Of a DNA stretch of 64,000 nt, positions 1 through 15,365 are shown one piece after another. Under the pieces are notes generated by a model, which had not been told where the DNA came from, ran no database searches, and saw nothing but the letters and a program-made list of their open reading frames with translations. Source of the DNA: Polyangiaceae bacterium (lineage in GTDB: Bacteria > Myxococcota_A > Polyangia > Polyangiales > Polyangiaceae); contig JANRKO010000047.1 of the NCBI GenBank assembly GCA_033763455.1, positions 32,001-96,000 on the forward strand, written 5' to 3'. The number at the start of each line of letters is the position of its first letter. Position 1 is the stretch's first letter. The position numbers and the translations under genes were made by a program.

Positions 1-55
1 GGCGAAAGCGCGGGGCGGAAATGGTGGGGTTCGGTGAGGGGGTAGTATCAGGCAT
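1..55 (-). CDS. 5' end of a gene running off the window (MPDTTPSPNPTISAPRFR...)
   Basis: ATG at 55-53 preceded by a strong RBS GGAGGAG (69-63); frame open to the window edge. Confidence 0.5.
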   Translation of the reverse strand, partial: MPDTTPSPNPTISAPRFR

Positions 56-653
56 GGGTGTGCTCCTCCGGCTCGGGCCGGGGTGGAAGGTGGACGGGAA
101 GCCCGCCAACAAAACGCGGCATTTCGTGGGTGTTTTCGCTCCGTGCAGAAAATCCCGCGCAAGAAAGCAATCTCTGCCCAACAGAGAGTAAGCGGGAATC
201 ATGCTGTTTTCGTGCGCCAAGCCCTAAGCTGCCTACGCTTGTGTTCGTTGGGTCGGATGGATGATTGCCGGCGTTGGCGGCGTCAGCTCCGATCAACGTC
301 GCGAACGAGGGGCGCAGACCACTCGCTAGAAGGCCCCGTGCTGCTCCTGAGCGCCTCTGTGGCTTCGTTTCACGAGGTGCACCCAAGATGCCCAGGCCTG
401 CCAGGGGGGCAAATGCCGGGTCTGAGATTCCGGGTTTCGGTGCCCACGTGTGTGGCGCTGGTATATCCAATGGCCCCCAGACCGTGTGCTGACTCTCTCT
501 GGCTAACCAGTGCTGAAGGCCGTCGTGTTCGGACCGTGTGTCGTGTGCTGGCCCCCCTAGTACCCCCCGTGCGTGAGCACACGACACGCTGGGAGCGTGT
601 GTCGGTGCACACACACGTGTGCTGGCACACTCAACACACGGCACACGCCTCAT
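48..653 (-). CDS. Doubtful hypothetical ORF (201 aa) spanning the repeat array
   Basis: ATG overlaps the helicase stop (ATGA) and the stop overlaps the next start, but no recognisable domain and the N-terminus is translated repeats. Confidence 0.3.
   Translation of the reverse strand: MRRVPCVECASTRVCAPTHAPSVSCAHARGVLGGPAHDTRSEHDGLQHWLARESQHTVWGPLDIPAPHTWAPKPGISDPAFAPLAGLGILGAPRETKPQRRSGAARGLLASGLRPSFATLIGADAANAGNHPSDPTNTSVGSLGLGARKQHDSRLLSVGQRLLSCAGFSARSENTHEMPRFVGGLPVHLPPRPEPEEHTHA
447..647. repeat. Iteron-like array of CGTGTG/CACACG hexamers in both orientations; candidate replication origin
   Basis: Ten copies counted (447, 483, 535, 542, 578, 596, 612, 616, 635, 642); 12-bp inverted repeat 538-549/576-587; palindrome CACACGTGTG 612-621; directly downstream of the helicase. 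Confidence 0.65.
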
Positions 654-2407
654 GATTGCACCTCAGCTTTTGCCCACTGCCTGGCGCTCCTTTGGCGACC
701 GTCGCTCAGGTCAACGGCTCGCCCTGTTTCCAGAAGCTCAGCCATGGTGTTTAGGATCCGGTGGGCTCCCCACTTGTGCCCCCGCTTCTCCAGAGCCACT
801 TCGAGCGCTCCCCGGCTGAACGTGTTCGGCTGCTCAGGCAGAAGGCTTTCCACCAAGTCGCAGTCCGCCCTGAACCCAACCTGAACCCGGGCCTGTTTGG
901 CTTCCGCCTTCACTTCGGGCGACGCATGCTCACGGAGACCCGAAGCCGCTCGGAGCTCCTCGGCTTCCTCGGGCGTTGCAGCCCTAAGGACACCCGAGGT
1001 GCGGAGCCAACCGCCACCCGGGAGTTGTTCGTCTTGCATGCGGACCAGCCACAAGGGGTCAGCCTCGGGCGCCAGGTTGTTCTTCGAGTTTTCGAGCAAC
1101 ACGCCCTGAAGCTCAGCCGTCCGAACCTTGCTCAGTGTGAAGGCCGCCCTGAAACCGTTGCGTAACCCCGTTACACCTCGAACATCGGCCCCGCCAGCCC
1201 TGCCACTCGTCTTTGAGCTGTGGTGCGTCACCATGACGCCGGGCTCACCCGTGACACGAATAGCAATCGATTCGACGGCCTGAACAAAGGCGGTTGCAAG
1301 CCCGTTGTCTGATTCAGCGTTGCCTGAAGCGAACCTAGCAAGCGGATCGATTGCAACGAACGCCCATTCGAACCCACCCTTTTCGGCTTCATCGTTCAGC
1401 CGCTGAACTATCGCCTCCAAGAATTCGGTGCGCCGGGGATTGTGCGCTTGATCCACTGACAAGAAAGAAACCTCGTGCCCCGTCAATAGGAATAACAAGA
1501 TCTTCTCTTGGACCTGAAGCCTCTCCTCTGCACCCAAGCCGAGCGCGTTGCAGATCCGATAGAGCCGATCCTGACATTCTTCGGCGTCATCCTCACCCAT
1601 GAGGAGCGCAATGCGTCCGCAGTTAACCTCCGGTTGAAAGGCATCAAACAGCTTGCGCCCGAGGCCCAGGCAGACAGCCATCAAAAGAGCAATGAACGAC
1701 TTGCCCACGCCGCCATCGGCTGCAAGTACGAACACTTTCCCGCGGCGGAGTAGCGGCACGGGCTTGCCTGAGCGGACGTCGTTAAACAACCAACGGCGCT
1801 TGGGCGGTTCGGTAGCTAGATCTAAACTGCTCAGCCAAATTGCTGGCAATTCCATTGGCTTCTGTCGTTCGAGAAGGAGCAAGAGAGCGGCGGCTTTGGG
1901 CCATTCCTTTTGCTCTATGAGTTCCAGAATCTCAGCGATCAGGGTCGCCGTTTCGGCTGATTCCTCTTCCGTGCTCGCCTCGCCAGACTCCGGAGCATCG
2001 TCGGAATCATGCGCTGAACCATTCGTTCCCCTGCCGTTGGTGTGCGGCCTCTCGGCTCTTGGTGGCGCCTGCCTCGGCTGCTTCTCGCCGGCACCAAATG
2101 CACTATTGAGCGTGGCCCTAATCTCCCCATCTCCAAGCCCGCATTGCTTGGCCGCATGGTGTAAAGCCGCGCGGGCCTCGGCTTCACCGAGCTGGCCACC
2201 TGATACAAGTTGCGCGACCGAAAAGGCCGACGTGTTCAGCTGATTATTTCGTTCGCCTTCGGCTGCCGAGGCTACCGCGGAGCATTCGCGCTCAAGTGCC
2301 GCCCTACCGTACGGCGTGCCTCCGTCGACGGCCTTGGCCCGCGGCGTTGAATCATTCGCCGGCTCCGGCCGTTTGCGGTTCTTGCCGATTGCTTCTTCCC
2401 AGCTCAC
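650..2407 (-). CDS. RepA/AAA_25-type replicative helicase with N-terminal PriCT-like helical domain
   Basis: Walker A ADGGVGKS, Walker B VAIDP, THHSSK and RGVTGL motifs, SKNN; N-terminal GERNNQLN...EIRATLNS; GTG start overlaps the Prim-Pol stop. Confidence 0.85.
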   Translation of the reverse strand: MSWEEAIGKNRKRPEPANDSTPRAKAVDGGTPYGRAALERECSAVASAAEGERNNQLNTSAFSVAQLVSGGQLGEAEARAALHHAAKQCGLGDGEIRATLNSAFGAGEKQPRQAPPRAERPHTNGRGTNGSAHDSDDAPESGEASTEEESAETATLIAEILELIEQKEWPKAAALLLLLERQKPMELPAIWLSSLDLATEPPKRRWLFNDVRSGKPVPLLRRGKVFVLAADGGVGKSFIALLMAVCLGLGRKLFDAFQPEVNCGRIALLMGEDDAEECQDRLYRICNALGLGAEERLQVQEKILLFLLTGHEVSFLSVDQAHNPRRTEFLEAIVQRLNDEAEKGGFEWAFVAIDPLARFASGNAESDNGLATAFVQAVESIAIRVTGEPGVMVTHHSSKTSGRAGGADVRGVTGLRNGFRAAFTLSKVRTAELQGVLLENSKNNLAPEADPLWLVRMQDEQLPGGGWLRTSGVLRAATPEEAEELRAASGLREHASPEVKAEAKQARVQVGFRADCDLVESLLPEQPNTFSRGALEVALEKRGHKWGAHRILNTMAELLETGRAVDLSDGRQRSARQWAKAEVQS

Positions 2408-3042
2408 GGAAGCACCGCCGGTTCCTGGCAGTTGACCCACCGGTACGTTGCGCCGCTGGCATGCCTGCTCGGACCCACAACGATTTGACCGCCACGGCTC
2501 CGAACGTCGATGCCCGGTGCTATCCGTACCGCATTGCCGAAGTTGGCTGAATCTGAAACTCGAAATAACAAGTGAAAGCCTTTGGCCGTCTTGGCCGTGA
2601 GAGTTTGCGGGAGTTTCCCGTGCTCAGCTTCGAGCGGAGCTAAGAGTTCAAGCGCGCCATCCACATCGATCGCGATCACATCGAACCCACCAGGCTGCGG
2701 CCCCATGCGGAGACCAACGTTCAAGCGCCAGTCTTTCTCCAAGCCAGCAAGCAACGCCGGAACGTCGAGCGCTGCAGACTGCCATCCCTGCGCAACGGGA
2801 TGTTTGCCGGCTGCCCCACAACCAGGCCGGCCACAGGTGCACGAACCATCGGCGGCAATGCCGTGTAGCAAGATCGGATGTAGCCCAAGCTTGGCGTAAA
2901 TGCGGATGGCGTCGAGCTTGTCTGTTTGGGCGATCCATTGAAGCCGATCCCACCCCTGCAACTGCAACGGGGAAGCCGAATCCATCAGCCGCTGAACCTC
3001 AGCCTCTGGAACAATCGCATAGGGATCGGGCTTGGTGCTCAT
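2404..3042 (-). CDS. Bifunctional DNA primase/polymerase (Prim-Pol) domain protein
   Basis: CTCGRPGC...GKHP, NVGLRMG, IDVD, KTAKGFHLLF, GIDVRSRGGQIVVGPSRH motifs; ATG at 3042 overlaps the upstream stop. Confidence 0.9.
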   Translation of the reverse strand: MSTKPDPYAIVPEAEVQRLMDSASPLQLQGWDRLQWIAQTDKLDAIRIYAKLGLHPILLHGIAADGSCTCGRPGCGAAGKHPVAQGWQSAALDVPALLAGLEKDWRLNVGLRMGPQPGGFDVIAIDVDGALELLAPLEAEHGKLPQTLTAKTAKGFHLLFRVSDSANFGNAVRIAPGIDVRSRGGQIVVGPSRHASGATYRWVNCQEPAVLP

Positions 3043-3356
3043 GCTTCGCCCCTGCACTGCCGACACACGACGCCTTGGCCCTTGGTCCACCACACGCGAT
3101 CGCCGACATCAATGGCCCGGGCGCAATCGCGACAAAAGCTGTTGAACCGCGAATCAATCCACCGCCCAGGTGATGCCGGTTGGCTCGCCCGCGCAGCTGG
3201 AGCGAGTGCTTGGCACTGACCGGGCTCGTGGAGCTGCAAGCCATGTTCAGCGATCATTTTCGCTAGGATGACGCCACAGGTTCGCGCCTCTTCGGGAGGG
3301 GTGCCAGAGTGCGCGGCACGACTGACTAGCGCCAGGGCGCGTGCCGCGATGCTCAC
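3039..3356 (-). CDS. DUF2786-like helix plus C-terminal Zn-ribbon protein (105 aa)
   Basis: ALALVSRAAHSGTPPEEAR...MIAEHGL resembles DUF2786; CRDC...CRQC; GTGA-coupled start. Confidence 0.6.
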   Translation of the reverse strand: MSIAARALALVSRAAHSGTPPEEARTCGVILAKMIAEHGLQLHEPGQCQALAPAARASQPASPGRWIDSRFNSFCRDCARAIDVGDRVWWTKGQGVVCRQCRGEA

Positions 3357-3799
3357 CTGGAACCCCGCGGAGCTGGCTTGCCACAGCCAAGATGTGCAGA
3401 CTTTTTCAGCTCGCGATGATAGACAATCGAGTCGCCAACCTGGTACCCATTGCCACAAACCACGCACTTGCCGGCATATTTTGATTCCATCGGGATTCCC
3501 ACGAACGGGCTCGGCACCGACATATCGGGCTCACCGCGGGTAGCCTGTGCTTGTGCCGCCGCGGGCTGGCTAGCCACCTCGGAGCGCAGCTTGGTGAGCT
3601 CCTCGATTACCTGAGGAAGCTCCCTATCCCGAAGTGTGCAGCCCTTCTTGGTGGGCAAAAGCTGCCCCGAATCCCCTCGAAAGAAGATCCGCAGGTCCGT
3701 GAACGGCTTACCGTTGTAGGTTTTGCGTGAGATCCGGAGTGTATCGGTGCCACGCTCAAACTCCAAAAGCACCACTCCGTCGGAGTCGTTTTCGCTCAT
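3353..3799 (-). CDS. PC4/p15 (YdbC-like) ssDNA-binding protein fused to a C-terminal Zn-ribbon
   Basis: LRISRKTYNGKPFTDLRIFF...PTKKGCTL PC4 signature; C-terminal CVVC...HLGC; ATGA-coupled start. Confidence 0.8.
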   Translation of the reverse strand: MSENDSDGVVLLEFERGTDTLRISRKTYNGKPFTDLRIFFRGDSGQLLPTKKGCTLRDRELPQVIEELTKLRSEVASQPAAAQAQATRGEPDMSVPSPFVGIPMESKYAGKCVVCGNGYQVGDSIVYHRELKKSAHLGCGKPAPRGSR

Positions 3800-3975
3800 T
3801 GTGCCGCCTCGCTCACCCAAAACTCAGGAGTAAGAATGCAGCGCAATTCCCACCCTTGGGAGCGCCGAAGCTCGGAGGCGTCAATCTTCCCACGCGCTGC
3901 GGACAAGGCCTGAGCAACTTCGTACTCGCCATTTTCAATGGCACGCCGGATCTCGCGATCAAGTGCGGCGCTCAT
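3796..3975 (-). CDS. Small hypothetical protein (59 aa, MSAALDREIRRAIENGEYE...), not in the ORF track
   Basis: Manually translated; ATGA overlaps at both ends fill the operon gap exactly. Confidence 0.65.
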   Translation of the reverse strand: MSAALDREIRRAIENGEYEVAQALSAARGKIDASELRRSQGWELRCILTPEFWVSEAAQ

Positions 3976-4133
3976 CGGGTCCGCCTCCCAGCCTTCGCGG
4001 CCTCGCGAAACAGCCCGGCAACCTCGCGTGAAATGGACCGGTGCCGGCGCGCCTGTTGGATCGCCAGGATGCGTTGGCGTTGCGATTCCCGGGCGTTTGC
4101 CGTGGTAGTGGGCTCAACGTGAACGGCGCTCAT
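3972..4133 (-). CDS. Small basic hypothetical protein (53 aa)
   Basis: ATGA overlaps at both ends. Confidence 0.6.
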   Translation of the reverse strand: MSAVHVEPTTTANARESQRQRILAIQQARRHRSISREVAGLFREAAKAGRRTR

Positions 4134-4432
4134 TTTCCGCCGCTCCCGGTTGCGGCCAAAACTTCCGACCACAGGTATCGAGGCGAGTCGCCGACCTTAC
4201 GGACTGGCAATTTGCCTGCCTTTGTCATCTTGTGAACCGTGGTTGAGCTCACGCTCAACCGCTGTGCCAGCTCCGAAGCTGAGAGGAGTCTCTCAGCGTC
4301 TGAAACTTCATCGGCGAGAGTTGCCCCACCAAGCCGCTGAATTATCACGTCGGCCACAGCGCTGGCCAGTTCGCCGCAGGTCGCGTGAACTGCCAACTTG
4401 CTTTCTAATGAATCCTTGATTAAAGTGCTCAT
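4130..4432 (-). CDS. Excisionase/AlpA-like helix-turn-helix protein (HTH_17)
   Basis: LLSASELAQRLSVSSTTVHKMTKAGKLPVRKVGDSPRYLWSEV. Confidence 0.85.
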   Translation of the reverse strand: MSTLIKDSLESKLAVHATCGELASAVADVIIQRLGGATLADEVSDAERLLSASELAQRLSVSSTTVHKMTKAGKLPVRKVGDSPRYLWSEVLAATGSGGK

Positions 4433-4445
4433 TGTCTCGATCCTT

Positions 4446-4477
4446 TGCGCCCCGCTGCTAGAAACAGTTGGGGCGCA
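4446..4477. promoter_or_regulatory. GC-rich hairpin between the two HTH genes
   Basis: TGCGCCCC (4446-4453) / GGGGCGCA (4470-4477) just upstream of the excisionase-like start. Confidence 0.35.
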
Positions 4478-4514
4478 CGCTTTTCAGCGTCCGGAGCCCA
4501 AGGGGCATTGATGG

Positions 4515-4712
4515 TTATGCAGCCTTTGCAGCCGTTAAGCGCTGCTCAAGCAGTAAGATGGTCCCTGGTGTCACCGGCAAACCGGCAGCAAGACGCATGA
4601 CGGTAGTGTCTGAAATGCCCAGCAAAGCGCTGGTTTTTCGTACCGATCGTTCAGTGATCAGGTCACGGACCTGTTTGACTAGATATGGACTTGCGGAGAT
4701 TGGCTTGGCCAT
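4515..4712 (-). CDS. Small Cro-like HTH protein (65 aa)
   Basis: SVRKTSALLGISDTTVMRLAAG HTH pattern; RBS GAGGTG. Confidence 0.7.
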   Translation of the reverse strand: MAKPISASPYLVKQVRDLITERSVRKTSALLGISDTTVMRLAAGLPVTPGTILLLEQRLTAAKAA

Positions 4713-4762
4713 GTGGCACCTCTAATCAGGTGTGCCGCAATGGATTCGCTTCTATCTCCGCG

Positions 4763-5719
4763 CTACCGTTTGGCCTTTTTTCTGCGGGAATTATTTTTTT
4801 TGAGGCTCAAAGTGAAGTCCTCAACTAGAGCCCGTGCCGTACGCTTCGAACCACCCTTGTTGAGCCCTACCGATTCCCGCATCTTGTCGATCGCAGTGGC
4901 AGTGAGCTCCGGCGGGACTTCGAGATCCTGAGCTAGCAGGTAGGCCCGGATCTCCTCGCCACTCGCCGGGCCCCAAAACGAGCCAGTGGCGCTCTCCTCC
5001 CGCATTCGAACAAGCTTGGCTTCAACCTTGGCAAAGGCGGGATCCGGCGTCCGTTTAGTTTTGCCGTGTTCCTTTCGCAGGCGTTCCTCTTCCCGGTGCC
5101 TCGCGTCCATTTCCAGTTGTGCGGCTAGGGAGTCTGACCAAGAAGCTCGTTCGCCATAGCGGTAGCCAAAAAGTGCTTCGAAGGCTTGTTCCAGCGCCGA
5201 TGAGCGCTCGAACATCATCATTCCTCCGCGTGCACCACGGAGTAGCGGGGCAAGATCTACTTGCGCACCACCTGCGTGGAAGAGGTGGCCAAGGCTGACT
5301 AGCAGACTCTTGGCGATTGCCTCTGTGCGGGGCGACGGATCGCAAAAGACCTTCGTCGTCCGCCATAGCATTCCGTCGCGATACTCAAAGCCAGCCGGGG
5401 CCCGCTTCTTGTCGTGCCGCCCTTTCTGGTCACGCTGCAAGTGAACACCCGCCGCGTCTCGCTCGTGACGTGTGTTGAGGCCTCGGCTCTCAGGCTCTCC
5501 AGACTGACCTTGCAGGTTATCGAGGAGCGCCATGACTTTAGCCATCGTGGCTTGGACAGAAGGGTGCCCCGGGTGCTTCCGAATTACTTCGTCAAGCTCT
5601 CCCAGTGTCTCTATTAAACCGCTGCCGTCTTGACTCCTTCGCGGAGGCGGCACCACTTTTAGCTTGACCCTCTCAGGCTTCTTCGGTGGCACCTTCCCCA
5701 TCGCGGCGACGGCCATCAT
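4763..5719 (-). CDS. Hypothetical protein (318 aa), first gene inside the att-like boundary
   Basis: Long ORF co-oriented with the element operon; basic termini; no recognised domain. Confidence 0.65.
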   Translation of the reverse strand: MMAVAAMGKVPPKKPERVKLKVVPPPRRSQDGSGLIETLGELDEVIRKHPGHPSVQATMAKVMALLDNLQGQSGEPESRGLNTRHERDAAGVHLQRDQKGRHDKKRAPAGFEYRDGMLWRTTKVFCDPSPRTEAIAKSLLVSLGHLFHAGGAQVDLAPLLRGARGGMMMFERSSALEQAFEALFGYRYGERASWSDSLAAQLEMDARHREEERLRKEHGKTKRTPDPAFAKVEAKLVRMREESATGSFWGPASGEEIRAYLLAQDLEVPPELTATAIDKMRESVGLNKGGSKRTARALVEDFTLSLKKNNSRRKKAKR

Positions 5720-5916
5720 AGCGCCCAGCCTTGCTGCTGGACTAGGCTACCCAGCATGCTTCGGATGTACGCGCGGGCGGCGCAATCGGCGGCAATCCAG
5801 CGGTTTCTTTCTTGCACCGAATTCTTGCATGGAGATACAGAATCCGCGCTTTTATCACCTACCGCGTTTGAGCCCGGCCCACTGGACAAGCCAGAAACAT
5901 CCTGATTCGAACCAAA

Positions 5917-5967
5917 AGCACAGCTTCCCATGCTTGGGGTCGTGGGTTCGAATCCCATTTCCCGCTC
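5917..5967 (+). pseudogene. 3' fragment of tRNA-Gly(CCC); probable att site
   Basis: CAGCTTCCCATGCTTGGGGTCGTGGGTTCGAATCCCATTTCCCGCT has the anticodon loop, T-arm and 3' acceptor strand; the 5' GCGGGAA strand and D-arm are absent. Confidence 0.8.
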
Positions 5968-6043
5968 AGAGTAGTTCAGAATAGCAGAATGGGTTGGAGG
6001 GGGGCGGGGTGCGAAAGGGCACTCCGGTTGGCTGCCGCGCGAA

Positions 6044-6099: not shown

Positions 6100-7260
6100 T
6101 CAGCCACCGCAGGTATCAATAATTGAGGCTGTTACGTCCGGAGGGTCATTCGGGCGGGAAACATCGCAAACGCCCTTACGCCCAAGGGCAGAGGCCACGT
6201 TGGCGGCGCCGAAACACTTCATTTCTGGGTGCCCGCAATCAGCCGTGCAATCGCAGAGCTTCAGGCAAATCCCCGCGTCCCCCTGGCCTTCCCCGGTGCG
6301 CGCGGGAACGCACACAGCACTGAGCGTTGGGCTCCCCGTTGGATTGCAGCTGCCTTCTGCACCCACAGTGCAGCCGTCGGCACAGGCTCCGATCGTATTG
6401 GTGAACGGTAAACAGAGCCCGCGGCAAGGGTCCACCTTCGCGTTGGGATCGCACTTGGAGCCGGTGGGCAAGCCTGGCGGAGGCTCAGCCCTACACAGCC
6501 CCGCTGAGAGAATAGCCGTCGCGAAATCGCAGGAAGTGCCCGACTCACACTCCCCGCTGGCACCGTTGCATTGCGGCAAACACGCCGCCAGGTTCGACGG
6601 AGCGTCGAGCAAAGTGCACGCCATCTCCGGCCTGTTGCTGCACTTTGCCGCATTGCCAATGGGACTTCCAACCGCGCAGGCTTCAAAACAATAGGCTTGC
6701 TTTTCGCTGCCCACGCACACGCTCTTTGCGTTGAGCTGCTGGCAGAGGCGGGCATCTTCGCTGCAATCTGCGGTGCAAAGCCCCTCGGCCGGGCCCCCAC
6801 CGTCGAGGGCGGTTGACCCGCTAGTGAGGCAAATGAGCCTATCTTCGCAATCCGTTTCCGAATTGCAGCGCGCCCCAACGGGGCCCTTCACAGCATTCGG
6901 GCGCCCCCCGGAAGCATTGCTCCCTGGGGGAGAACCGCCAACAGACGTTAACCCACCACTCCCGATCAGACTGTTCCCGCCGGACGAACCATTGGGCCCT
7001 CCGCCAGCGGCCGAGGCATTGTTAAACCTCCCGCCCGTAGGCAGAAGGGGGAGATTATCTATCGACACCAAGCCCGCGCCACCACTGCCCAGCGCAGCCA
7101 ACGTTCCCCCCGTGGAGCCTGCGACGGCATCTGCTCCTCCCGAAGCATCCCCGCCTGTCGACTCGAACAGGCTATTGTCCGCCTGGCCGCACGCGGGCGC
7201 CAACCCAACACTCAACGAGAAAACCACACTCAAACTCAACCAACGCAGTGAGGGCTTCAT
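6100..7260 (-). CDS. Cys-rich lipoprotein with Gly-rich linker (paralog of 13837-15009)
   Basis: Signal peptide ending LAPAC; Gly-rich spacer; many Cys; C-terminus ...ASIIDTCGG. Confidence 0.85.
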   Translation of the reverse strand: MKPSLRWLSLSVVFSLSVGLAPACGQADNSLFESTGGDASGGADAVAGSTGGTLAALGSGGAGLVSIDNLPLLPTGGRFNNASAAGGGPNGSSGGNSLIGSGGLTSVGGSPPGSNASGGRPNAVKGPVGARCNSETDCEDRLICLTSGSTALDGGGPAEGLCTADCSEDARLCQQLNAKSVCVGSEKQAYCFEACAVGSPIGNAAKCSNRPEMACTLLDAPSNLAACLPQCNGASGECESGTSCDFATAILSAGLCRAEPPPGLPTGSKCDPNAKVDPCRGLCLPFTNTIGACADGCTVGAEGSCNPTGSPTLSAVCVPARTGEGQGDAGICLKLCDCTADCGHPEMKCFGAANVASALGRKGVCDVSRPNDPPDVTASIIDTCGG

Positions 7261-7350: not shown

Positions 7351-8313
7351 CTAAGGCGGCAAATCTCGCGCACAACGGATCCCAATGTAATCAATGTGAT
7401 TATCCGGGCTATGGTTGCTGCGATAATCTGTGGTGATGCGGCCAGAATCCGAGCCAAAATATCCGCCGCGAATGGAGCGAAGCGTGCTCTCCTTTGTTTC
7501 CGCGCAGTTCACGCACGTAGGTTGATAGGCCGCGTACCAATCGAAGTTCCACTCAAACACGCTGCCGCCAAGATCGGACTGACCAAACTTCCCGTCCCCT
7601 GCCGGAAGGGAACCAACATTGGCGGTATGGATCTGCTTACAGCTCTCCGGATCCGTCGCAGCGACGGTAAAATGGCAGCTAAAGACCGCCCTTAGCGGAG
7701 GGCCAGCAGGCGGGTCTTCACCCCAGGCGTACGACCGCTGCTCGGCGCCACCCGCAGCAGCGTAGTTCCACTCGGCTTCGGTGGGCAGCCTTCCACCATC
7801 CCATAAGCAAAACGCGAAAGCTTCGCTCGAAGCAATGCAATTCATGGGGAGGTTTTCGCCCGCGCCTGGCTCGTCCGTCCAGTGCTGAAAAGCAGCGTCG
7901 CACTTGGCTACTTTGCGCAAGGTTGCGGCATCTTTAGGCAAGGAGGCACTTCGGCTTGCCGTCCACCCCGTACCTGGAATGCGCGGGTGCGCCCCTTCCC
8001 CAACCATTGGGTGCCCGGCGCTCCGCCAGGAATCATAAGCTTCCACGAATTTCCGATAGCGCCCCACGGTTACCTCGAACTTATCGAGCGTAAAATCCGC
8101 AACTTCGGCCGGGAAAGCCGGATCATTGCTGCGATTGAAGGCTCCACCCGTAACCTTCGGGCTCGCGCAGCAGCTTTCATTGCCAAGAGCCCCGCACGTC
8201 TTAGGTAACGTTTGGCAGCTGAGGGGCTCCGCCACCAGGTTCTCCGCTGGCACAGCTTCGGAGCCGCACGCCAACACAAGCCCACACCCAGCACACAGTG
8301 CCAAGACACGCAT
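7351..8313 (-). CDS. Formylglycine-generating enzyme (FGE-sulfatase/SUMF1) domain lipoprotein
   Basis: LDKFEVT, RLPTEAEWNYAA, DLGGSVFEW, RGG, IGIRCAR; lipobox VLAC; start estimated. Confidence 0.9.
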   Translation of the reverse strand: MRVLALCAGCGLVLACGSEAVPAENLVAEPLSCQTLPKTCGALGNESCCASPKVTGGAFNRSNDPAFPAEVADFTLDKFEVTVGRYRKFVEAYDSWRSAGHPMVGEGAHPRIPGTGWTASRSASLPKDAATLRKVAKCDAAFQHWTDEPGAGENLPMNCIASSEAFAFCLWDGGRLPTEAEWNYAAAGGAEQRSYAWGEDPPAGPPLRAVFSCHFTVAATDPESCKQIHTANVGSLPAGDGKFGQSDLGGSVFEWNFDWYAAYQPTCVNCAETKESTLRSIRGGYFGSDSGRITTDYRSNHSPDNHIDYIGIRCARDLPP

Positions 8314-13836: not shown

Positions 13837-15009
13837 TTACCCGCCTGCGCCACCGCCGCCAGCGTTCACGCCACCGGTTGCTGCGGCTCCGCCCGCTGCG
13901 GGCGCTCCAGCCGAGCCCGACCCCCCAGTTGCCGCCGCACCACCTGCGCCTGCTCCACCGGCTCCGCCGCCAGCACAGGTATCGATGATGGAGGCAGTGG
14001 TAGCCGGTGTATCGGTTGCACGTTGGATATCACAAATGCCTTTACGCCCGAGGGCGGCTTCCGCGTTCGCATTCCCGAAGCACTTCATGTCCGGGTTCGC
14101 GCAGTCTGCCGAGCAATCGCACAGCTTGGTGCAAAGGCCTACGTCCCCTACGCCACCGTTTTGCAGGGCGGGCAAACAGAATCCATCTAGTTTCATCCCA
14201 CCTCCTGGATTGCAGGAGTCAGGCGACCCCACCGTACAGCCGTCTCCACAAGCGCCAATGGTTGCCGAAAAGGGTACGCACAACCCGCGGCAGGGATCCG
14301 TGGCCGCATTGGGATCACACTTGGCTCCTGTGGCAAGCCCTGCCGGGGGTGTCGCCTGGCAGAGCCCAAAGGATAAGAACGCCGAGGCGGCGCTGCAGGT
14401 TGTGCCATTCACGCACTCACCTACCGCTCCGTTGCATTGGGGTGCACAGAAATTGCCTAGGATGGCGCCTGTCGAATCGAACGCTGGGGCGCAAGCCACT
14501 TCAGGCCTACCGTGGCATTTGTTGTTGAGGTCAGCCTGGGTGGCAGGGGTGTCTGGCAAACACGTCTCAAGGCAGAAACCGTTGCCCTGCTGATCCAGAG
14601 AAATGCACGCAACGTTACGACCAAACTGCTGGCAAACTCCCGGATTTGCGGAGGTGCAAGGCGCGGTACAAAGACCACCCGGAGGGCCGCCGCCGCCCAA
14701 ATCAGTTGAACTACTGGTGAGGCACTTCAAGCCGGTACCGCAGGCGGCGTCGTTGGCGCAGCGCGCACCCACCGTTGTGCTTGCGTTGGCGCCACCACCG
14801 GTAGCTGTGTTGCCCCCAGTCACGGCCCCGTTGCCGCCAGTGTTGCCGCGCCCACCAGTACCCGGCAAAACTCCTCCCCCGCCAACACCAGCACCGCTTC
14901 CGCCAGCTCCCGAGTCGCTCGCTACTTCATTGCTCCCGCAGCCCGGCGCCGCACCAAAAGCCAACAAACACCCAACTCCGGCAGTCAACCATGGCAGCAG
15001 CTTTTTCAT
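13837..15009 (-). CDS. Cys-rich lipoprotein with Gly-rich flanks (paralog of 6100-7260)
   Basis: Signal peptide ending APGC; RBS GGAG; Cys pattern shared with 6100-7260. Confidence 0.85.
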   Translation of the reverse strand: MKKLLPWLTAGVGCLLAFGAAPGCGSNEVASDSGAGGSGAGVGGGGVLPGTGGRGNTGGNGAVTGGNTATGGGANASTTVGARCANDAACGTGLKCLTSSSTDLGGGGPPGGLCTAPCTSANPGVCQQFGRNVACISLDQQGNGFCLETCLPDTPATQADLNNKCHGRPEVACAPAFDSTGAILGNFCAPQCNGAVGECVNGTTCSAASAFLSFGLCQATPPAGLATGAKCDPNAATDPCRGLCVPFSATIGACGDGCTVGSPDSCNPGGGMKLDGFCLPALQNGGVGDVGLCTKLCDCSADCANPDMKCFGNANAEAALGRKGICDIQRATDTPATTASIIDTCAGGGAGGAGAGGAAATGGSGSAGAPAAGGAAATGGVNAGGGGAGG

Positions 15010-15216: not shown

Positions 15217-15289
15217 GGGCCGATAGCTCAGTCGGTAGAGCAGTGGATTTTTAATCCATTGGTCGAGGGTTCGAATCCCTCTCGGCCCA
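15217..15289 (+). tRNA. tRNA-Lys(TTT), CCA not encoded
   Basis: GGGCCGA...TCGGCCC-A acceptor; D-arm GCTCAGTCGGTAGAGC; anticodon arm GTGGA-TTTTTAA-TCCAT; GGTTCGAATCC. Confidence 0.95.
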
Positions 15290-15365
15290 CTCAATACTTC
15301 CCCGCCTATCCCGCCTGTTTCCGAACCGGCCTGCCTAGCTCCCTAAAATTCTATATCCTGCGGCT

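Follow-up and report, generated by a model that had tools for sequence, protein, structure and literature searches.

The window analysed here is a 64,000-nucleotide stretch of a Polyangiaceae genome (positions 32001–96000 of contig JANRKO010000047.1, hereafter C47; assembly GCA_033763455.1, 6.56 Mb in 92 contigs, 93.7% complete). Its first 5967 nucleotides are best read as the early end, concerned with replication and excision, of an integrative element in the 3′ end of a tRNA-Gly(CCC) gene. This is a real mobile element, inserted recently as a 17.8-kb unit. We consider it probable that it is a helper-dependent phage satellite bringing its own terminase and tape measure, because it combines its own excision and replication genes with a complete packaging ATPase-nuclease and has no recognizable capsid-forming gene, a design that is kept across genera. 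A wider proposal is plausible though short of probable: that the element belongs to a previously undescribed satellite family of the Polyangiaceae, which encodes its own large terminase (TerL), a family-specific partner and a tape-measure/tail-core protein, and relies on a helper for the capsid shell, the portal and the remaining tail parts.

The element is bounded by two exact 49-nt direct repeats, found by a repeat search and an exact-match scan of the genome, whose spacing sets its length at 17,808 bp. The left copy (attL, C47:20114–20162) lies inside an intact tRNA-Gly(CCC) gene (C47:20086–20159), 11.9 kb left of the window, and the right copy (attR, window 5922–5970, plus strand) repeats the 3′ part of that tRNA exactly. 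A reading of the first 5967 nucleotides made from the letters alone (the sequence-only reading) had noticed the tRNA fragment at attR and proposed a tRNA-anchored, phage-satellite-like element; because the repeats lie 17,808 bp apart, the region it flagged is only the right-hand third of the whole. The anchoring that it predicted is borne out upstream, where the intact tRNA adjoins a 443-aa tyrosine integrase (Pfam Phage_integrase, E = 2.2e-10; phrog_1 at 1.1e-24), the 3′ end of whose gene overlaps the tRNA. ARAGORN found no whole tRNA in window positions 1–6000, and an Rfam scan of the element matched the tRNA only. A second genome from this genus, G409, is syntenic over the left flank and tRNA at 70–77% identity; there the homologue of window 7364–8180 starts about 100 nt after the tRNA, with no element between them, and the attachment site is empty. 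The element's genes are therefore not syntenic core genes, an alternative that the sequence-only reading had raised, and since the empty site is in a genome of the same genus, the insertion is recent. Profiles of TerL and of the tape-measure protein had no match in the three other genomes of the genus (3/3). The host itself is an uncultured myxobacterium of Polyangiales/Polyangiaceae type: its DnaE shares 89% identity with that of a Polyangiales metagenome-assembled genome (MAG) and 61–62% with those of Polyangium, Sorangium and Minicystis.

The packaging gene lies left of the window. Profiles and a structural model identify a 506-aa protein as TerL. A profile of 37 homologues matches terminase nuclease domains in the PDB (E = 3e-8), the AlphaFold2 model (mean predicted local distance difference test score, pLDDT, 89) has the HK97, Sf6 and T4 large terminases as its best Foldseek matches (E = 4e-18 to 4e-15), and neither the Walker A and Walker B residues nor the acidic residues of the nuclease vary among the 37 sequences. 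At E ≤ 0.001 we obtained 228 relatives among 7,998 scored candidates of a 5.8-billion-protein set, all of them unnamed or ‘hypothetical’; the few with organism names came from Polyangiaceae or Myxococcales MAGs, with one labelled Pseudomonadota. Six of the 401 genomes sampled from the phylum as a whole contain the family, as do, at E ≤ 1e-10 and with phages included, 60 of the 251 sampled host-family genomes. A pattern search for relatives in species-representative genomes returned none; whole-genome searches did find relatives. Many TerL relatives (P0011, P0053, P0063, P0071 and others, together with phage loci L012, L014, L016 and L017) match the N-terminal ATPase half only, at 46–62% identity, with a diverged nuclease half. 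This pattern suggests domain-level mosaicism in the terminase family.

Directly upstream of TerL is a gene for a 177-aa protein. Its family occupies that position in 13 of 14 small elements and lies within approximately 0.7 kb of TerL in the 14th, while none of the five related phage loci with upstream sequence carries it (0/5). In the AlphaFold2 model of the protein (pLDDT 88), short N-terminal strands precede a bundle of helices. Neither Pfam nor PHROG gave a small-terminase (TerS) family match and a PDB profile search gave nothing relevant; the VIA wide search returned Z scores of 7.4–9.1, many of them to phage head-to-tail adaptor chains, values that are below the meaningful level for helical proteins. 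A predicted complex of the protein with TerL scored 0.41, against 0.02 for the best control. This mark was reached by 116 of 157 solved pairs and by 2 of 215 mismatches, and was reached at 0.60 or under by only 18 of the 157 solved pairs and by both mismatches, so that the score gives weak support to an interaction. The complex runs agreed in at least 57% of contacts, with a partner pLDDT of at least 69. From its position and this modelled complex, we treat the 177-aa protein as a candidate small terminase or TerL partner, and call it the partner below.

The second gene of phage type encodes a 728-aa protein that, judged by its relatives, belongs to a diverged tape-measure (PhageMin_Tail) family. 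Precomputed PF10145 (PhageMin_Tail) annotation is carried by 7 of 60 homologues, and four of the 38 aligned family members match PF10145 (best E = 1.6e-11); an Atlas feature search led to PhageMin_Tail clusters (score 0.96, 187 shared features), and relatives in the elements L142, L138 and L036 match tape-measure PHROGs. The Pfam PhageMin_Tail model run over the host genome misses the gene even at E ≤ 1, and the family profile found nothing relevant among PDB sequences. A single-protein scan of viral contigs gave no match.

All element genes are on the minus strand and run in one direction, with the integrase last. Following the right-hand replication genes and an iteron-like cluster come an ORF (open reading frame) of about 98 aa, the 177-aa partner and the 506-aa TerL. 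After TerL there are ORFs of 183, 132, 113 and 100 aa, then the 728-aa tape-measure-family protein and a 78-aa ORF. These are followed by an HTH_3/MqsA-like regulator, a weakly matched ribbon-helix-helix (RHH) protein and several small ORFs, and the left end is formed by a 286-aa protein with a CxxCxxCC domain and the 443-aa integrase. Thus, in place of the full structural module of an ordinary prophage, which the sequence-only reading had allowed for, the upstream part holds TerL, the partner and the tape-measure gene. The 26 element ORFs in locus L001 (C47:18501–38500) were scanned with Pfam and PHROG, and in these searches none matched a portal, major capsid protein or protease, a holin or endolysin, or the head-tail adaptor/connector families. 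The longest ORF of the late block that has no family assignment is 183 aa. Neither the tail tube nor the lysis genes of a complete prophage were detected in the element or in nine relatives, and 17.8 kb leaves no room for them. The Pfam scan of the same 26 ORFs found no relaxase or conjugation domains, and PADLOC, run on 17 ORFs, reported no defence system, with matches at the level of HTH (helix-turn-helix) domains only.

Inside the window, every plausible gene of positions 1–5967 is on the minus strand, as had been reported from the letters alone, and three of the domain calls made there were confirmed by Pfam. A 596-aa AAA_25 (RepA/DnaB-like P-loop) helicase (650–2440; AAA_25 E = 1.6e-26) also matches PHROG primase/helicase families, for example phrog_906 at 3.8e-13. 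A 229-aa Prim-Pol, or bifunctional primase/polymerase (2404–3093, start codon uncertain; Prim-Pol E = 7.7e-26), matches the DNA primase family phrog_1156 at 2.1e-20, and a 155-aa protein with a PC4-like single-stranded DNA-binding fold and a C-terminal zinc ribbon (3353–3820) matches PC4 at E = 5.4e-10, above the curated cut-off. Between these last two, translation gives a zinc-ribbon protein of about 105 aa with a C-terminal CxxC...CxxC pattern (3039–3356; the ORF as called has 142 aa and extends to 3467), and the related element L041 encodes a 105-aa homologue. The zinc ribbon of the earlier annotation is visible in the sequence, and its DUF2786 was not reproduced, with no match to that or any other Pfam family at E ≤ 5 for 3039–3467. 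The excisionase-like HTH also holds: a 100-aa Xis/AlpA-like regulator or excisionase (4130–4432) matches HTH_17 (E = 5.9e-7) and the excisionase families phrog_66 (2.7e-7) and phrog_7735 (1e-5). The Phage_AlpA and Stl families were not matched, the regulators of the element being the HTH_17, HTH_3/MqsA-like and weak RHH proteins. By contrast, the first ‘HTH’ of the sequence-only reading is not supported; this 318-aa charged protein, the first gene inside the right end (4763–5719), has no match in Pfam, PHROG or PADLOC.

Directly 3′ of the helicase stop codon lies the iteron-like array noted previously, with CAGCACACG and CGTGTGCTG motifs in direct and inverted orientation (483–647). With at most one mismatch, CAGCACACG has 12 matches in the 20-kb locus against 6.46 expected, and at least 12 were obtained in 5 of 200 shuffles. 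Six of the 12 near-matches and all three exact matches (3/3) fall within these 165 bp. Two related elements, L011 and L036, likewise have a clear array immediately 3′ of the helicase/primase gene; in six others that were examined the picture is unclear. The position of the cluster makes it a candidate replication origin.

Relatives of the element indicate how far this arrangement is shared. Counting the present one (17,808 bp, tRNA-Gly(CCC)), we found nine elements of 13,341–18,285 bp with att repeats at both ends in Polyangiaceae genomes and metagenomes. The other eight are L034 (15,090 bp, tRNA-Leu(CAA)), L041 (14,531 bp, tRNA-Cys), L011 in genome G225 (14,892 bp, tRNA-Ala), L036 (18,285 bp, a tRNA-Cys 3′ fragment), L037 (14,596 bp, tRNA-Thr), L140 (14,193 bp, tRNA-Leu(GAG)), L142 (13,341 bp, tRNA-Ala) and L138 (16,815 bp, a 21-nt repeat with no tRNA). 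Integrase homologues adjoin the att site in the related small elements. Replication modules vary, comprising Prim-Pol with AAA_25, Prim-Pol with VapE, a DnaG-like primase with a helicase, or an HTH_36 initiator. What stays the same is the form of the late block, in which the partner gene and TerL are followed by a few small ORFs that are not conserved and then by a gene of the tape-measure family or a baseplate-hub-like one. No portal, major head or protease family was matched in 201 ORFs of nine related elements (138 in six and 63 in three). Among the 251 host-family genomes, TerL and tape-measure genes shared a contig and strand in ten cases, spread across genera, with a gap of 1.1–3.8 kb in nine and of 10.8 kb in one; the tape-measure search was filtered more strictly, which makes its counts minimum values.

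A 14,419-bp metagenome contig (L040) has no host genes and carries, in this order, genes for a tape measure (38% identical to that of the present element), an RHH protein, an integrase, an Xis-like protein, a replication initiator, a partner (62% identical) and TerL, which is a circular permutation of the integrated order. It is possible, to judge from this gene order, that L040 is an excised, concatemeric or tandem form; the contig minus its first 1,806 nt showed no tRNA-like attP beside the integrase. Its TerL homologue (L040:10001–11589) is split into ORFs of 262 and 267 aa by a frameshift or an assembly error. At another locus (L018:7548–10402), a tRNA-like fragment lies between two integrase genes that point towards it, an arrangement suggestive of two tandem elements sharing an attachment site.

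The TerL family also has a phage context, represented by six IMG/VR loci on contigs of 13.8–61.6 kb. L013 and L015 encode a portal, a protease and a major head protein after TerL. A major head protein was also recognized in L012 and an adaptor/portal match in L016, so that the PHROG scan recognized head or portal/connector genes in four of the six. In L014 and L017, TerL is followed by ORFs of 650–690 aa with no PHROG head match.

From this gene complement we infer helper dependence, packaging into helper capsids and a role for the tape measure. Excision at the 49-nt att repeats would be the work of the tyrosine integrase and the Xis/AlpA-like HTH protein. The element would then be replicated from the iteron cluster by Prim-Pol and the AAA_25 helicase, aided by the PC4-like single-stranded DNA binder and the zinc-ribbon protein. 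Its own TerL, which would bring packaging specificity with it, and the upstream partner would cut element DNA and pump it into procapsids of a co-resident or infecting tailed phage, and the tape-measure-family protein and the small ORFs between its gene and TerL may be built into, or modify, helper-derived tails. By supplying its own tape measure, a satellite could impose a new tail length or ensure that its genome is delivered.

This combination differs from those of the satellites to which it is closest in outline. The core of phage-inducible chromosomal islands (PICIs) is described as an integrase, a regulator, a primase-replicase, a capsid-morphogenesis gene and a small terminase, with no other structural genes (PMC10085698). 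Like PICIs and the Staphylococcus aureus pathogenicity islands (SaPIs), which are of approximately 10–18 kb, the element integrates site-specifically, has a putative AlpA/Xis-type regulator and its own primase-replicase with an adjacent candidate origin, lacks recognizable capsid genes and carries a packaging gene that would redirect helper packaging. It has an integrase at one end and a primase-replicase module, as PICIs do, beside a putative origin. Unlike them, it has a full TerL and a tape-measure-family gene, and so departs from the rule of no other structural genes; no capsid-morphogenesis gene was found, and the genes share a single orientation that ends with the integrase. The P4- and PICI-like character proposed earlier therefore holds for the layout of Xis/AlpA-like HTH protein, primase, helicase and origin but not for the hijacking genes, and TerL and a tape measure are typically lacking in those satellites as described in PMC10085698. 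Capsid-forming PICIs (cf-PICIs) add capsid, adaptor/connector and TerL to the PICI core (PMC10085698); their own genes specify the capsid, the protease and the head-tail adaptor/connector, and only the tails come from the helper (PMC10085698; 10.1101/2022.09.08.507074). The present element resembles them in having its own TerL and in probably needing a helper for part of the virion, and differs in having no capsid or protease match of its own but a tail (tape-measure) gene. Its design is suggested to be the mirror image of that of cf-PICIs.

P4 has the capsid-size and regulation genes sid, psu and delta and is not known to carry a terminase. None of the 26 ORFs of the present element has a Pfam or PHROG match to P4-type sid, psu or delta. 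The Pseudomonas satellite phiAH14b (16.8 kb) integrates at a short repeat and has an integrase, AlpA, a primase, a helicase and a homologue of a tail-assembly protein (PMC4936722), and no terminase is identified in that description of it (PMC4936722). An integrase, an AlpA-like regulator (putative in the present element), an own primase and helicase and, presumably, the use of helper capsids are common to P4, phiAH14b and the present element, which is distinguished by TerL and the partner gene. Closest as regards the tape measure are the EPIPs of Mycolicibacterium aichiense, small satellites reported to encode a tape-measure protein and a small terminase (PMC12822802, a preprint), whose authors state that tape-measure proteins are otherwise absent from satellites save for a proposed tape-measure-like protein in PLE11 (PMC12822802). 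The likeness, a tape-measure protein in a small satellite, is one of published gene content. EPIPs have a serine integrase, genes for a head-to-tail adaptor, stopper and scaffolding, and an actinobacterial host (PMC12822802); a tyrosine integrase, TerL and a Prim-Pol/helicase module set the present element apart from that description.

Several observations count against a helper-dependent satellite. In the TerL tree, sequences from small elements and phages are intermixed, with at least three changes between the two settings, and none of 200 bootstrap trees gives a single group; repeated capture of helper terminases and repeated prophage reduction would account for this equally well. The partner has no fold match to terminase small subunits, Foldseek against PDB and BFVD giving nothing at E ≤ 0.001, the 728-aa protein itself has no direct Pfam or PHROG match, and the five small ORFs near its gene (183, 132, 113, 100 and 78 aa) have no assignment and are not conserved between elements. 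Silence of hidden Markov models is not absence of a gene, and PHROGs found no head gene in the phage loci L014 and L017 either, despite their ORFs of 650–690 aa after TerL. No helper was seen in the element's own assembly, in which the Phage_capsid, Phage_portal, Terminase_6N, phrog_113 and phrog_1005 models had no match; the phrog_1005 model matched no control genome either. No read-level trace of excision or encapsidation was found in the one sediment sequencing run searched, as contigs only. Finally, phages are described as the only elements with consistent tail components, which makes a tail gene atypical for a satellite (PMC10085698).

The sediment run contained 10% of the element's sequence words, as contigs only: near-identical flank fragments, 275 nt of the 183-aa gene and a diverged tape-measure contig. 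Some apparent joints in this run were considered as attP or attB and rejected, as they have tRNA-like sequence with extra letters between and fit neither; they have no bearing on excision.

Some of these points would also suit the main rival, a defective remnant, in which a temperate siphovirus-like prophage has lost its head, neck and most tail genes, has kept integrase, replication genes, terminase and tape measure, and is no longer transmissible in particles. TerL and tape-measure-family genes are ordinary in phages and relatives of this TerL sit in complete phages; together with the intermixed tree and the lack of a helper in the genome, this keeps a remnant in play, although we regard it as unlikely. 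The compact gap of 1.1–3.8 kb between TerL and tape-measure gene recurs in nine of the ten co-located cases across genera, nine copies with intact att repeats occupy different sites at only 13.3–18.3 kb, and the partner family marks small elements and not phage loci. The TerL catalytic residues are invariant and the matches have no internal stops. Moreover, given the empty site in a same-genus genome, the insertion was recent and the element therefore moved in its reduced form.

A small autonomous virus, with a capsid and portal too divergent or unusual to be recognized, is very unlikely. It would accommodate the 14 of 26 ORFs that had no family match at the reporting thresholds used, the origin of several protein matches in contigs of 14–18 kb, and the 132-aa protein, whose nearest Atlas clusters are small and consist mostly of viral (85–100%) hypothetical proteins (score 0.94). 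However, the unassigned ORFs between TerL and the tape-measure gene do not exceed 183 aa, and the only longer ones are the 318-aa charged protein at the early end and the 286-aa CxxCxxCC-domain protein beside the integrase. The approximately 2 kb available is too small for the portal, capsid, neck, tail proteins and lysis genes needed by a terminase-driven virion, and no holin or endolysin was matched. Least probable of all is a non-viral integrative island that moves by other means and reuses terminase- and tape-measure-like genes, for example as a decoy packaging motor or a tail-assembly blocker against phages: anti-phage functions are frequent on satellites and islands, where tail-assembly interference systems exist (PMC11364771), and no helper was identified, but PADLOC found no defence family beyond the HTH-domain-level matches in 17 ORFs, TerL retains its ATPase and nuclease catalytic residues, no conjugation or mobilization gene was found in the element, and the replication module with its candidate origin is satellite-like. 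A helper-dependent satellite is thus the best-supported reading, in line with the phage-satellite-like element of the sequence-only reading, with dependence on a helper the part that we infer.

Descriptions of phage satellites come chiefly from Proteobacteria, from Firmicutes and from a few Actinobacteria. Our literature search found no paper joining ‘phage satellite’ and ‘myxobacteria’; the main text of the SatelliteFinder paper (PMC10085698) does not mention Myxococc*, and a 2026 preprint on myxobacterial viruses, its supplements excepted, has satellites only in the reference list. If the element is a satellite, it extends satellites to the Myxococcota and adds a hijacking design, with its own large terminase and its own tape measure and no capsid, that current detection models would assign neither to the phages nor to any satellite type already known. 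With the TerL family turning up so often (in 60 of the 251 host-family genomes, phages included), elements of this kind could contribute significantly to gene flow among these soil bacteria with large genomes. Should the present element be only a reduced prophage, this is an ordinary matter of annotation.

Some further genes of the element deserve a brief description. The ORF of about 98 aa that crosses the left edge of the window (window 1–55 and leftwards, L001:13262–13555, minus strand, from an ATG at 55–53) is weakly supported as a gene and sits between the iteron cluster and the partner gene. It starts with a twin-arginine-like motif, FTRRTALGTLLLSA, and had no significant Pfam match (best E = 0.11, with E ≤ 5 allowed); its product might be a secreted or membrane protein. 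The zinc-ribbon and HTH_3 (MqsA-like) regulator has 149 aa (L001:5961–6410, minus strand) and an 82% identical paralogue at C47:1661–2107, about 18 kb left of the element; no other protein of the element is closely duplicated in this genome. Of the small late proteins, those of 132 and 183 aa have only two and five homologues, respectively, in two large protein libraries, and their Atlas structural neighbours are below a TM score of 0.5. The 100-aa ORF (L001:9291–9593) and the 78-aa ORF (L001:6860–7096), which flank the tape-measure gene, are 33% identical over 63 aa and both end in ...ARERL, a weak similarity (E = 0.031 in a single comparison). Cargo is found in the late block or the accessory region of related elements: L036 has a toxin–antitoxin-like pair of DUF433 and PIN-like proteins between TerL and the tape-measure gene (L036:11510–12552), and L034 carries a GGDEF protein on the opposite strand (L034:15757–16599).

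Directly right of attR, the window encodes a 386-aa secreted cysteine-rich protein (6100–7260) with no counterpart at the syntenic site in G409. When the translations are compared, it visibly resembles a 390-aa protein (window 13837–15009) encoded beside a tRNA-Lys(TTT) gene at 15217–15290. The two genes may mark a second variable locus next to tRNA genes.

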